Below are positions 7,479 through 44,569 of a stretch of 64,000 nt of DNA, one piece after another. The first letter of the stretch is position 1. Each line of letters opens with the position of its first letter. The notes beneath the pieces are model-generated. The model made no database searches, was not told the origin of the DNA, and was given only the letters and a program-made list of their open reading frames with translations. The position numbers were made by a program, and so were the translations under genes. The DNA lies in NCBI RefSeq assembly GCF_055900595.2, contig NZ_CM148325.1; one strand, 5' to 3'.

Positions 7479-8096
7479 TTATTCTTCAATCGCTAACAAT
7501 TGCAATGAACCACGGCTAAAATCCGCCAGTTTTGCGGAAAATTCAGCCACTTTCGCCGCCGGAAGCGCCACCCGCAGCAGAACGAATGTCTGATAATCAC
7601 TGTTGATAATTTTGCCGCCACACTGCCCCAGCAATGCTTCAATGCCGGTTAACTGACTATATTCACATTGCAAAGTATATTCGGTTAATGGCGTCTTGCG
7701 TTGGGTCGTTAGCTGGCGCAGTGCCTGATTCACGCCGCCGCCATACGCTTTCACTAACCCACCGGTGCCCAGCAATATGCCGCCGTAGTAGCGCACCACC
7801 ACGGCGGTAATTTCCCCGACGCCGCTGCCCATAAGTTGGGCGAGCATCGGTTTACCTGCCGTTCCCGCGGGTTCCCCGTCATCAGAGAAACCCAGTTGTT
7901 GAGAATCATCCGGTGCGCCAGCTACCCACGCCACGCAATGGTGGCGGGCATCAGGGTGTTCTGCCCGCACCGATTCAACAAACGCTTTCGCCGCCTCGAC
8001 GCCATCGGTATGCGCCAACAGCGTAATGAAGCGGCTTTTTTTGATCTCTTCAACAACCGTGACCGGTGCCGCAGGAATTAACCAGCTTTCCATCAC
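7479..8096 (-). CDS. yigZ: IMPACT-family protein
   Basis: 205-aa ORF; 4-bp overlap with pepQ stop; conserved synteny. Confidence 0.8.
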
Positions 8097-9424
8097 GCCA
8101 GTTTCAGATCCCGGGTCATGTTTTCCACGTTGTTTTCGTGGATCACCACGTTGTCTTCGATACGAATACCGCCGAACGGTTTCAGTGCTTCAATTTTCTG
8201 CCAGTTGAAGTGTTTGCTGAACTGCCCTTCACGCCACGGTGCCAGCAGCGATTCGATGAAGTAGATACCCGGTTCGATGGTTAAGACCATGCCCGGCTGG
8301 AGAATACGGGTGCAGCGCAGGTACGGATATTTTGCCGGTGCCGCGAGGTGCGTACCGCTATCATCCTGCATAAAACCGGCCACGTCATGCACCTGCAGGC
8401 CCAGCGGATGGCCGATACCGTGCGGCATAAACGGTCCGGTAAGATCATTTTCGACCATCGCCTCTTCACTCATATCGGTGATGATTTGATGTTTACGCAG
8501 CAGTTTGGCGATACGCTGATGGAACTGGATGTGGTAATCCACATAGCTGACGCCTGCTTTCATGGTGGCGATCAGCGCCAGTTGTTCATCATTTACGTCT
8601 TTCACCAGCTGTGCATAGTCGTTGTCGCTTTTTGCCGACCAGGTACGAGTCAGGTCAGCCGCATAGCCGTTATATTCGGCCCCGGCATCCAGCAGGAAGC
8701 TGCGCATCTCTTCCGGTGCCTGATGGTCGAGTTTGGTGTAATGCAGTACCGCAGCGTGTTCGTTGAGCGCCACAATGTTGCTGTAAGGCACGTCGGTATC
8801 ACGATGACCGGTCGCGGTCAGATAGGCAATGTTGATATCGAACTCGCTCATGCCAGAACGGAACGCTTCTTCTGCCGCGCGATGACCGTTGACCGCCATT
8901 TTCTGCGCTTCACGCATACAGGCCAGTTCGTACTCGGTTTTGAAGGAGCGGTAGTAATGCAGGTAGTCGATCACCCCTTTCGGGTTGATATTGCTGGCCT
9001 CAATACCCAGTTGCAGCGCACGTTCCGGCACCGGACCGATATAACCGATATTGCCGCGCGCAGCTGGCAACAGGCTACCAATGCCATCGGCTTTCGGCAA
9101 CGCAATTACTTCCACGTCCTCAGTCCAGAAGGAGGTCGGCAGTGGTTCAACGTTGTGCCAGTAATCAACCGGCAGATAAAACCACAGTTTCGGCTTGTTC
9201 ACGCCATCTACCAGCAACCAGCAGTTTGGCACCTGGGTTACCGGCACCCACGCTTTGAATTGCGGGTTCACTTTAAAAGGATAGGGATGATCGTCGAGAA
9301 AAACGTTGAACAGTTCGCCGGAGTGAATAAGTAACGCATCCAGCTTGAAGCGCGCCAGCGCATCGCGAGTCCGTTCCTGTAAGGTAGCTATATGATTTTT
9401 ATAGAGCGAGGCCAGTGATTCCAT
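8093..9424 (-). CDS. pepQ: Xaa-Pro dipeptidase (prolidase)
   Basis: 443-aa ORF starting [26 protein letters not shown]…; M24 metallopeptidase motifs ([13 protein letters not shown]). Confidence 0.92.
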
Positions 9425-9570
9425 TTTTTACCCTTCTGTTTTTTGACCTTAAGTCTCCGCATCTTAGCACAACGTTAATACAGAGCGTGATTTCTGCCGA
9501 GCGTGATCAGATTGGCATTTCTTTAATCTTTTATTTGCATATTTTTAACACAAAATACACACTTCGTCTC

Positions 9571-9587
9571 ATCTGGTACGACCAGAT
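9571..9587 (+). promoter_or_regulatory. FadR operator of fadBA (ATCTGGTACGACCAGAT)
   Basis: Perfect palindrome ATCTGGT-ACG-ACCAGAT, 26 bp upstream of the fadB ATG; corresponds to the known FadR site. Confidence 0.8.
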
Positions 9588-9612
9588 CACCTTGCGGATT
9601 CAGGAGACTGAC

Positions 9613-11802
9613 ATGCTTTACAAAGGCGACACCCTGTACCTTGACTGGCTGGAAGATGGCATTGCCGAACTGGTATTTGATGCCCCAGGTTCAGTTAATA
9701 AACTCGACACTGCGACCGTCGCCAGCCTCGGCGAGGCCATCGGCGTGCTGGAACAGCAATCAGATTTAAAAGGGCTGCTGCTGCGTTCGAATAAAGCAGC
9801 CTTTATCGTCGGTGCTGATATCACCGAATTCTTGTCCCTGTTCCTCGTTCCTGAAGAACAGTTAAGCCAGTGGCTGCATTTTGCCAATAGCGTGTTTAAT
9901 CGCCTGGAAGATCTGCCGGTGCCGACCATTGCTGCCGTCAACGGCTATGCGCTGGGCGGTGGCTGCGAATGTGTGCTGGCGACCGATTATCGTCTGGCGA
10001 CGCCAGATCTGCGCATCGGTCTGCCGGAAACCAAACTGGGCATCATGCCGGGCTTTGGCGGTTCTGTACGTATGCCACGTATGCTCGGTGCTGATAGTGC
10101 GCTGGAAATCATTGCTGCCGGTAAAGATGTCGGCGCGGATCAGGCGCTGAAAATCGGTCTGGTGGATGGCGTAGTCAAAGCAGAAAAACTGGTTGAAGGC
10201 GCGAAGGCGATTTTACGTCAGGCCATTAACGGCGACCTCGACTGGAAAGCGAAACGTCAGCCGAAGCTGGAACCGCTAAAACTGAGCAAGATTGAAGCCA
10301 CCATGAGCTTCACCATCGCTAAAGGAATGGTCGCACAAACAGCAGGGAAACATTACCCCGCGCCCATCACCGCAGTAAAAACCATTGAAGCGGCTGCCCG
10401 TTTTGGTCGTGAAGAAGCATTAAATCTGGAAAACAAAAGTTTTGTCCCGCTGGCGCATACCAACGAAGCTCGCGCACTGGTCGGCATTTTCCTTAACGAT
10501 CAATATGTAAAAGGCAAAGCGAAGAAACTCACCAAAGACGTTGAAACCCCAAAACAGGCCGCTGTGCTGGGCGCAGGCATTATGGGCGGCGGCATTGCTT
10601 ACCAGTCTGCGTGGAAAGGCGTGCCGGTTGTCATGAAAGATATCAATGACAAGTCGTTAACCCTCGGTATGACTGAAGCCGCAAAACTGCTGAACAAGCA
10701 GCTTGAGCGCGGCAAGATCGACGGTCTGAAACTGGCTGGCGTGATCTCCACGATTCATCCAACGCTCGACTACGCCGGGTTTGACCGCGTGGATGTTGTG
10801 GTAGAAGCGGTTGTCGAAAACCCGAAAGTGAAAAAAGCCGTACTGGCAGAAACCGAGCAGAAAGTACGCCCGGATACCGTGCTGGCGTCTAACACTTCAA
10901 CCATTCCTATCAGCGAACTGGCCAACGCGCTGGAACGTCCGGAAAACTTCTGCGGGATGCACTTCTTTAACCCGGTCCACCGGATGCCGTTGGTAGAAAT
11001 AATTCGCGGCGAGAAAAGCTCCGACGAAACCATCGCGAAAGTCGTCGCCTGGGCGAGCAAGATGGGCAAAACGCCGATTGTGGTTAACGACTGCCCCGGC
11101 TTCTTTGTTAACCGCGTGCTGTTCCCCTATTTCGCCGGTTTCAGCCAGCTGCTGCGCGACGGCGCGGATTTTCGCAAGATCGACAAAGTGATGGAAAAAC
11201 AGTTCGGCTGGCCGATGGGTCCGGCATACTTGCTGGATGTCGTGGGCATTGATACCGCGCATCACGCCCAGGCAGTGATGGCAGCAGGTTTCCCGCAGCG
11301 GATGCAGAAAGATTATCGCGATGCCATCGACGCACTGTTTGATGCCAACCGTTTTGGTCAGAAGAACGGCCTTGGTTTCTGGCGTTATAAAGAAGACAGC
11401 AAAGGTAAGCCGAAGAAAGAAGAAGATGCCGCCGTTGACGACCTGCTGGCAGAAGTCAGCCAGCCGAAGCGCGATTTCAGCGAAGAAGAGATTATCGCCC
11501 GCATGATGATCCCGATGGTCAACGAAGTGGTGCGTTGTCTGGAGGAAGGCATTATCGCCACTCCGGCAGAAGCCGATATGGCACTGGTCTACGGCCTGGG
11601 CTTCCCTCCGTTCCACGGCGGCGCGTTCCGCTGGCTGGACACCCTCGGTAGCGCAAAATACCTCGATATGGCACAACAATATCAGCACCTCGGCCCGCTG
11701 TATGAAGTGCCGGAAGGTCTGCGTAATAAAGCGCGTCATAACGAACCGTACTATCCCCTGGTTGAGCCAGCCCGTCCGGTTGGCGACCTGAAAACGGCTT
11801 AA
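9613..11802 (+). CDS. fadB: fatty-acid oxidation complex alpha subunit (enoyl-CoA hydratase / 3-hydroxyacyl-CoA dehydrogenase)
   Basis: Protein from [32 protein letters not shown]…, 729 aa; the ORF track's upstream extension from 9415 is rejected. Confidence 0.93.
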
Positions 11803-12975
<1,173 letters not shown>

Positions 12976-12980
12976 CCACT

Positions 12981-13094
12981 TGCCGGATGCGGCGTAAACG
13001 CCTTATCCGGTCTACCGATCCTGCGCCCATGTGGGCCTGATAAGACGCGCAAGCGTCGCATCAGGCATCGTGTGCCGAATGCCGGATGCGACAT
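12981..13094. repeat. REP/BIME palindromic unit cluster
   Basis: GCCGGATGCGGCGTAAACGCCTTATCCGG…GCCTGATAAGACGCGCAAGCGTCGCATCAGGC…GCCGGATGCG; typical enterobacterial REP sequences between convergent fadA and fre. Confidence 0.8.
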
Positions 13095-13134
13095 AGATCT
13101 AAATGCCACTGTATAAAGTTTTAGTTGCCGTTCT

Positions 13135-13160
13135 TCCCGCCTGTCAGGGGCGGGTTTTTT
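13135..13160 (+). terminator. rho-independent terminator downstream of fadBA
   Basis: CCCGCCTGTCAGGGGCGGG stem-loop followed by TTTTTTAT. Confidence 0.7.
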
Positions 13161-13165
13161 ATATC

Positions 13166-13867
13166 TCAGATAAATGCAAACGCATCGCCAAACAGGCGAT
13201 CTTCCCGCGCATTACGCTCACTGCAAAACAGGTCACGGGCAATTTTCGCCATCTCAAAACGTCCGGCAATATAGATATCATGCTCTGCCAGCGTGCCGTG
13301 ATCCTGCAATACCGCCGTTAACACGGTGCCAGTACGCCCACGCCAACCCGCTTCCGGTTGTTCAACCACCGGCACCACTTGCAGACCAGGATGCTTCAGC
13401 GAAAGCGCCTCAAGCTCGGAGAGATCATAAAGATGCTGCTCTTCACGCCCGCCCCAGTAAATGGTGATATCACGGTTTGGGTTACGCGCCAGCGCCGTCA
13501 GCAAAATCGAGCGCGCATAAGAGAACCCGGTGCCACCCGCAATCAAAATCATCGGACGTTCTTCATCATCGCGCAGCCACGCTTCTCCGTGGGGAATATC
13601 GACCACGATTTGATGATCTTTGAGAATACGGTCCATAACGGCTTTCGCGTAAAGGTTAATTTCAGAAGCGCCAATATGCAGCTCGATGAAACCTTTTTCA
13701 TCCGGCGTCGAGGCCATTGAAAACGGACGTTTGTCGCGCTCATCCATCACTACCATCAAATACTGACCAGCACGAAAAGAAAAGGCCGCGTCTGGTACGA
13801 TTCGGACACGGTATACGGTATCCGTGATAGCTTCTACCGAGGTCACTTTACAGCTTAAGGTTGTCAT
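13166..13867 (-). CDS. fre: NAD(P)H-flavin reductase
   Basis: Protein from [25 protein letters not shown]…, 233 aa; the ORF-track start at 13900 is an 11-codon upstream extension. Confidence 0.9.
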
Positions 13868-34140: not shown

Positions 34141-34927
34141 TAAACGTTGGCCAGTGCGGCTGTTGGTGCCAGATAGCCAGGTTAACCAACAGCCCTGCCG
34201 GAACGTGCATATTATTCATAATGCCCAGCGTTCCGGCGTCCACCTGAGTCGCGCCGTAGTTCCACATAAAGTAGCCAATACCGGAAGCCACCACGCCAAG
34301 AAACACCAGAATGCCCCATTGCAGCGTGGTTTGCGGCATTTTCTGCGCATTTCCCAGCAAGAACCATGCAATCACCGCCACCAGGAACGCGCCAAGATAG
34401 AACCACGCAAAGGCGTTATGCTGCGGCATCGGGCGAGTTTCCATCAGGCGTTTGTAGCCCACCATGCCGATGGCAAAAGTGATATTGGAGAGTTGCACCA
34501 GCAACAGGCCGGTCCAGAAATGGTCAGTGACCTGATCATAGCGAATAATCCCGGCACCAATCACCGCCAACAAGGCGCTAAAAGCATAGCCCCAGCGCAG
34601 ACGGCGCTTACTCATGATGTCATAAATCAGCGTGATGTAGAGCGGCGTCAGTACGGTGAACAGCAACAGTTCGGAGACCGTCAGGTAGAGATAGGCGCGA
34701 AAACTCAGCATATACATCACGCCAAGCTGCATCGCGCCCACCAGCATATACAGACCGACCGTTTTCAGGCTATTGCCACGGGTACGCAGAAACGGCAGAA
34801 ACACGAGTGCCGCCAGGCCAACGCGCACCAGCACTGCAAAATAGCTATCGACGTGCCCCGCAAGGTACTCGCCATAAAAGCTAAAGGAGAAGGCCCACAG
34901 AATCGTGGTGATGATAAGTAGCGCCAC
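34028..34927 (-). CDS. yigM: DMT/EamA-family transporter (biotin uptake, BioP)
   Basis: Ten-TM EamA-type protein; start placed at GTG 34927 ([15 protein letters not shown]…) giving 299 aa; the ORF is open to 35002; 3' end overlaps metR convergently. Confidence 0.75.
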
Positions 34928-43618: not shown

Positions 43619-44569
43619 TTACAACCAGTTCTTCCGTTTAAAGTACAGATACGGTGCCAGGCCCGCGAGGATCATAAAGATAATCGCGCCTGGGTAGCCG
43701 AAGCTCCACTTCAGTTCCGGCATAAACTCAAAGTTCATCCCGTAGCTGGAAGCGACCAGCGTCGGTGGCAGGAACACCACGGATACCACCGAGAAGATTT
43801 TGATGATGCGGTTCTGCTCGATATTGATAAAGCCCATCGCCGCCTGCATCAGGAAGTTCACCTTCTGGAACAGGGATTCGTTATGCGGCAGCAGGGATTC
43901 GATATCTCGCAGGATTTCACGCGCCTGTTCCAGTTGCCCACCCGGTAAGCGTGCTTTACGTACCAGGAAGTTGAGCGCGCGCTGGGTATCCATCAGACAC
44001 AGGCGAACTTTCCAGCCGATATCTTCCAGTTCCGCCAGCGTGGAGAGCGCCTCGTCGTACTCATCGCCCTGATGCCCTTCCATAATTACCCGGCTCAACT
44101 GCTCCAGGTCGCTGTAGATATTTTCAATTTCATCTGCCAACTGTTCGATTTTGGTTTCGAACAGATCCAGCAGCAGCTCGTAGGCGTTACCGTCCACCAT
44201 TGACTGGCTACGGGCACGCATACGATACAGACGAAAAGCGGGCAGTTCACGCTCACGCAGAGTAAACAGACGACCATCACGGATGGTAAATGCCACAGTG
44301 GAGTTACCGGCGTGATCTTCCGCATCTTCAAAGAAGAAGAAGGAGTGAATATGCAGGCCGTCATCGTCTTCAAAGAAACGTGCCGATGCTTCGATGTCTT
44401 CCAGTTCCGGGCGGGTTGCCAGGCTCTGCCCAAGTTCAGATTGTACGCGCAGTCGCTCGTCGTCATCCGGTTCGACAAGATCAATCCATACTGCATTTAC
44501 AAGGGGTTGTGACTCTTCGACTTCCAGCCGGGTCAGTCGGTTATTTTCCAGTTGAAATGCGCTCAGCAT
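43619..44569 (-). CDS. corA: magnesium/cobalt transport protein CorA
   Basis: 316 aa from [31 protein letters not shown]…; C-terminal YGMNF motif. Confidence 0.95.

Follow-up and report, generated by a model that had tools for sequence, protein, structure and literature searches.

A single FadR operator at the fadBA promoter in a 64 kb segment of an Escherichia coli chromosome

Genes and features of the pepQ-fadBA region

The sequence analysed here, termed the window, is a 64,000 nt stretch of an E. coli chromosome. Window positions 9300–9800 match 5425 of 5426 complete E. coli genomes, and pepQ and fadB are annotated at the matching loci. The intergenic region between pepQ and the divergent fadBA operon is 188 nt long and contains a FadR operator. 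The features discussed are listed in Table 1.

Table 1. Features of the pepQ-fadBA region, in window coordinates
Feature	Position	Strand	Basis or remark
pepQ	8093–9424	-	divergent from fadB
Probable -35 hexamer, TTGCAT	9535–9540	+	conserved TTGCA(T/A) block 17 bp upstream of CACACT
Putative FIS site, TTGCATATTTTTAACACAA	9535–9553	+	published as -36 to -18 (PMC3460868); exact match in the window
Probable -10 hexamer, CACACT	9558–9563	+	weak, 3/6 to TATAAT; conserved block and spacing
Inferred fadBA transcription start (+1)	9571	+	FIS site numbering in PMC3460868 and position of the -10
FadR operator (OB) of the fadBA promoter, ATCTGGT-ACG-ACCAGAT	9571–9587	.	sequence, identity with the published operator, conservation
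Shine-Dalgarno sequence, AGGAG	9601–9605	+	7 nt before the ATG; TCAGGAGA block conserved across orthologues
fadB (729 aa), first gene controlled by the operator	9613–11802	+	open reading frame trimmed to the RefSeq start
fadA (387 aa), downstream gene of the operon	11812–12975	+	open reading frame and RefSeq
Intrinsic terminator closing the fadBA transcript, CCCGCCTGTCAGGGGCGGG then TTTTTT	13136–13164	+	terminator scan

The open reading frame list extends fadB upstream to a GTG at 9415, which gives a 66-codon N-terminal extension. The RefSeq start of fadB is equivalent to 9613, and the same start is annotated in seven other strains. FadB orthologues with 66–99% aa identity all align from residue 1, and each of the 80 orthologous loci has an in-frame stop 1–70 codons ahead of the fadB ATG, mostly at a distance of no more than 30 codons. 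Since the orthologous loci have in-frame stops, the 75 open codons upstream of the ATG in the window are an accident. The extension is therefore rejected on the basis of the RefSeq start, the conserved AGGAG and the orthologue stops, and the first-pass annotation, which had corrected the start to 9613, was right on this point. It had also held that the operator itself helps to reject the extension. This holds only in that a transcription start at about 9571 would leave GTG 9415 outside of the transcript; the argument is indirect and the other evidence is stronger.

At the 3′ end of the operon, a strong intrinsic terminator hairpin (13136–13154) is followed by a T-run. FadZ is a 3′UTR-derived sRNA known from Salmonella and also detected in E. 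coli (PMC10703908), and the terminator at 13136–13164 is likely to form the 3′ end of this sRNA. An Rfam scan of positions 9300–13400 gave nothing at the operator; the only matches were sub-threshold REP-like naRNA4 matches after fadA, situated in the fadA 3′UTR at 12968–13012 and 13034–13107.

The operator sequence and its identity with the published fadB site

The fadB operator has been footprinted and crystallised with its repressor, and is widely reused as a fatty-acid biosensor part. In the window, positions 9571–9587 read ATCTGGTACGACCAGAT, and a palindrome scan shows this to be a perfect 7-3-7 inverted repeat (ATCTGGT / ACG / ACCAGAT), in agreement with the first-pass annotation. The operator begins 42 nt upstream of the fadB ATG, with 25 nt between its end and the ATG, so that its earlier placement just upstream of the 9613 start is borne out by the RefSeq start.

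The first-pass annotation had matched the sequence with the fadB FadR operator and proposed a comparison with the published operator and transcription start. The identity is exact. The published 17-mer, printed as 'fadO', is letter for letter the sequence at 9571–9587. The fadBA gel-shift probe ACTTCGACTCATCTGGTACGACCAGATCACCTTGCGG contains the same 17-mer and is bound by wild-type FadR but not by the W60G mutant (PMC4259882). A crystal complex of FadR with DNA was made with the duplex 'operator FadB (CATCTGGTACGACCAGATC)', in which base contacts are mainly with the TGG of each half-site (PMC3592433), and window positions 9570–9588 are identical to this crystallised 19-mer. Among FadR sites, that of fadB shows the highest affinity, owing to a more precise dyad around TGGTN3ACCA (PMC2602784). 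The window 17-mer is thus the same sequence for which FadR binding has been published (core of the gel-shift probe, crystal duplex and 'fadO'), the binding itself being known from the literature.

The published FadR consensus is aaCTGGTCnGACC(T/A)Gtt (PMC9329746). The operator agrees with it at 13 of 16 specified positions, with a perfect TGGT-N3-ACCA core and a weighted score of 12/14, and it is the sole 17-mer in the 64 kb that scores 11.5/14 or better. There is one exact copy of ATCTGGTACGACCAGAT in the window, that at 9571–9587. Allowing up to three mismatches gives three matches where 0.13 are expected, one of them being the other strand of the operator itself. Two weak FadR-like 17-mers are situated elsewhere: AACAGGCCGGTCCAGAA at 34503–34519, with a score of 11/14, and ATCCGGTTCGACAAGAT at 44465–44481, with three mismatches to the operator. 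Both are found inside long open reading frames and have degenerate cores; they are rejected as FadR sites and are probably chance matches.

Palindromy on its own is not significant. The window contains eight perfect 7-3-7 palindromes, compared with 3.8 ± 2.0 (maximum 10) in mononucleotide shuffles. Such palindromes are common, and palindromy is therefore rejected as evidence for the operator, the significance of which comes from the motif match and conservation.

Conservation within E. coli

From the operator through the ATG, the sequence is invariant in eight E. coli alleles whose intergenic identity ranges from 93.7 to 100%. On a larger scale, positions 9570–9612 are 100% identical in 5413 of the 5419 E. 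coli genomes with a match, and for the 50 nt upstream of the operator (9520–9569) complete identity is limited to 2649 of 5339. A rare operator variant, GTCTGGTACGACCAGAT, has an A to G change at the outermost first base (the inferred +1) and no other change in the operator. It is present in E. coli SCU-125 (L092, 60–76) and, independently, in a soil metagenome-assembled genome (L028).

The pepQ-fadB intergenic allele of the window (9425–9612) is itself rare, with 99% or greater identity in 17 of 5425 E. coli genomes; most genomes show 95–97%. It carries three A substitutions within 9 bp (9472, 9477 and 9480) that are absent from the seven other aligned alleles, and relative to these alleles its T-run near 9439–9444 is one base shorter. 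A hotspot of polymorphism is found at positions 9567–9569, after the putative -10 and just ahead of the operator (TCT, ACT or ATG among the eight alleles), with invariant flanks. The pepQ-fadB promoter region is found in up to three copies in some E. coli genomes, once on a plasmid; a few strains thus carry duplicated or mobilised copies of it.

The fadR gene lies outside of the window. The K-12 fadR sequence has a match in 5422 of 5426 complete E. coli genomes, and with these genomes taken as a proxy, the gene is almost certainly present in the source strain as well.

Conservation across genera

The cross-genus sample consisted of 80 loci with FadB orthologues (66–99% identical) from Enterobacterales and Vibrionaceae, 72 of them from Enterobacterales. 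The best FadR-like 17-mer within 300 nt upstream of fadB was taken from each locus, and windows inside fadB served as controls. The best upstream site scores 11–13/14 in 80 of 80 loci, and the maximum for the controls inside fadB is 10.5–11. In the 72 Enterobacterales loci the site is situated 39–45 nt from the fadB ATG, and 65 of these loci have the arms ATCTGGT/ACCAGAT. The information content over 69 distinct orthologous promoters is 1.98 and 1.91 bits per position in the two operator arms, 0.81 bits in the central triplet and 0.50 bits downstream of the operator.

The central triplet (9578–9580 in the window) takes two forms. A-N-G (ACG, ATG, AAG) is found in Escherichia, Citrobacter, Enterobacter, Klebsiella, Erwinia and Pantoea. 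C-N-T (CAT, CGT), which is the reverse complement of A-N-G, is found in Serratia, Yersinia, Rahnella, Hafnia, Xenorhabdus, Photorhabdus, Providencia and Proteus (loci L009–L084, approximately positions 1455–1475 in each). The first group represents Enterobacteriaceae and Erwiniaceae, and the second Yersiniaceae, Hafniaceae and Morganellaceae.

Positions 8 and 10 of the site are unpaired in all 14 distinct site variants from the 80 loci, and a perfect 8-1-8 palindrome, TGGTC-N-GACCA, never occurs. Enterobacterales operators always combine one TGGTA half with one TGGTC half. This asymmetry might be functional, through selection against maximal FadR affinity that keeps the operon inducible or through a second role of the site as a 5′ mRNA hairpin, but we consider such a function unlikely. 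The comparative data as a whole only re-document the tight conservation of the operator and add nothing biologically new.

Promoter and transcription start

In the fadBA promoter, Feng and Cronan numbered the putative FIS site TTGCATATTTTTAACACAA -36 to -18 (PMC3460868). Since this site corresponds to window positions 9535–9553, by their numbering +1 falls at 9571, equivalent to position 4031013 on the minus strand of MG1655 (NC_000913.3), and the operator at +1 to +17. On this numbering, the comparison with the published transcription start proposed in the first-pass annotation gives the same position as the start of the operator. A review also places the fadBA FadR site over the transcription start (PMC9329746). 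By the published numbering and the predicted start, the operator belongs to the promoter of a gene for fatty-acid degradation and overlaps the -10/+1 region.

When the 69 distinct orthologous promoters are anchored on the operator, a TTGCA(T/A) block at 9535–9540 shows 1.33 bits per position, a CACACT/CACAAT block at 9558–9563, separated from it by 17 bp, shows 1.17 bits, and the variable 7 nt stretch ahead of the operator (9564–9570) shows 0.66 bits. These would represent the -35, the -10 and the discriminator, respectively. The assignment is made from conservation and spacing because the promoter is non-consensus: a generic sigma-70 consensus promoter scan of 9350–9700 gave no match. The empty scan fits a weak, activator-dependent fadBA promoter. 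Genome-wide start-site supplements (Kim 2012, Conway 2014, Ettwiller 2016) yielded no usable fadB entry.

A TTAACA block in the promoter spacer (9546–9551), inside the putative FIS site, is likewise conserved in Enterobacterales (1.35 bits). On the opposite strand the block reads TGTTAA, which is similar to an ArcA half-site. Binding of ArcA to the fadBA promoter has been reported (PMC3460868). The operon is ArcA-repressed in addition to its control by FadR, and shows a CRP dependence that is perhaps indirect through FIS; no CRP site is known in the fadBA promoter (PMC3460868, PMC9329746).

Function of the operator and alternative explanations

There is very little doubt that positions 9571–9587 represent OB, the one FadR operator in the fadBA promoter of E. 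coli, acting by steric repression over approximately +1 to +17, and no observation speaks against this reading. The operator is real, was correctly identified and is already known as a textbook FadR site. FadR binding, the crystal contacts, release by acyl-CoA and the fold derepression are taken from the literature; the sequence identity, genomic context, uniqueness and conservation come from the present analysis.

In the mechanism established for FadR (PMC3460868, PMC9329746, PMC3592433), a FadR homodimer (GntR family, winged helix-turn-helix) reads the TGG of each CTGGT-N3-ACCAG half-site. In the window, the operator would extend over approximately +1 to +17 of a weak sigma-70 promoter with a probable -35 (TTGCAT) and a probable -10 (CACACT). 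Because the operator covers the transcription start region, bound FadR would block a productive RNA polymerase complex and thus switch off fadB-fadA and the 3′UTR sRNA FadZ. Once long-chain fatty acids have been taken up and activated, the resulting long-chain acyl-CoA (C14 or longer) binds the C-terminal domain of FadR and moves the two recognition helices apart, upon which FadR leaves the DNA and fadBA is derepressed 5- to 10-fold. In keeping with this scheme, fadBA expression is 5- to 10-fold higher when fadR is deleted (PMC3460868), and relief of FadR repression by acyl-CoA is known for K-12 (PMC3460868, PMC9329746).

A palindrome at the very start of a transcript could also act mainly in the RNA, as a 5′-terminal stem-loop of the fadBA mRNA that affects stability or translation, with protein binding secondary. 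The first 17 nt of the inferred transcript do form a 6 bp hairpin with a 3 nt loop in both the minimum-energy and the centroid structure, and within the palindrome only the loop triplet varies freely. However, the fold of 9571–9640 is not unusual (z = −1.15), an equally good fold being reached by 29 of 200 shuffles. Across taxa it is the sequence of the arms that is conserved, without compensatory changes, and where they vary pairing is lost: 4 of the 14 distinct sites have A/A at pair 4/14, and pairs 1 and 2 are Watson-Crick in only 64%. This pattern argues for base-specific recognition by a protein, and the invariant letters are exactly the TGGT/ACCA contacted by FadR. A hairpin as the main function of the operator is therefore rejected as very improbable, the fold being unremarkable and the pairing not maintained.

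E. coli has several FadR-subfamily paralogues, and a different regulator of the GntR family might in principle recognise the palindrome in place of FadR. The operator does agree with the general GntR signature, 5′-(N)yGT(N)xAC(N)y-3′ (PMC3592433). Against this, FadR binds the exact operator sequence by gel shift and in the co-crystal (PMC4259882, PMC3592433), fadBA responds 5- to 10-fold to deletion of fadR (PMC3460868), and the literature cited here reports no other regulator for this palindrome, which makes another GntR regulator extremely improbable. A functionless chance palindrome, suggested by the frequency of perfect 7-3-7 palindromes (eight against 3.8 ± 2.0 in shuffles), is refuted by the published binding data, the exact match to a characterised operator and the conservation in 72 orthologous promoters, where the site keeps its position and its arms carry about 2 bits per position at FadB identities down to 66%.

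As a FadR site, the operator marks the fadBA operon as FadR-regulated in the source strain. Its value for annotation is that it anchors the fadBA promoter and confirms 9613, rather than GTG 9415, as the start of the fadB coding sequence.

Comparison with known FadR sites

The closest known system is the OB operator of E. coli K-12, the site of DiRusso et al. 1992 and of crystal structures 1H9T and 1HW2. Its 17-mer and the flanking bases C...C are identical to the window, and the sequence from the operator to the ATG, the 42 nt distance to the ATG and the neighboring genes pepQ, fadB and fadA are all alike. Differences are found upstream of the operator only: at 9567, four bases 5′ of the operator, the window has T and K-12 has A, and further upstream the three rare substitutions and the shorter T-run described above set the window apart from K-12.

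The fadB operators of other Enterobacterales are like that of the window in arms and position but differ in the central triplet (ATG, AAG, CAT, CGT). Those of Vibrionaceae share the CTGGT...ACCAG core, but their outer bases are AAC.../...GTT and the site lies 56–74 nt from the ATG.

Other repressor sites of the fad regulon (fadL sites 1 and 2, fadD sites 1 and 2, fadE, fadH, fadM and fadIJ) share with fadB the 17 bp consensus, the overlap with -10/+1 and the release of FadR on acyl-CoA. They are only pseudo-palindromic, e.g. fadD site 2 with the sequence AGCTGGTATGATGAGTT, whereas the fadBA site is a near-perfect dyad. In addition, fadL and fadD have two sites each and show 2- to 3-fold repression, in contrast to the one site and 5- to 10-fold repression of fadBA.

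The activator sites of fabA and fabB also bind FadR through a related 17-mer, AACTGATCGGACTTGTT. In these sites CTGAT replaces CTGGT and the right half is degenerate. They are situated upstream of the promoter and activate transcription, whereas the fadB site is positioned at or just after the transcription start and represses it.
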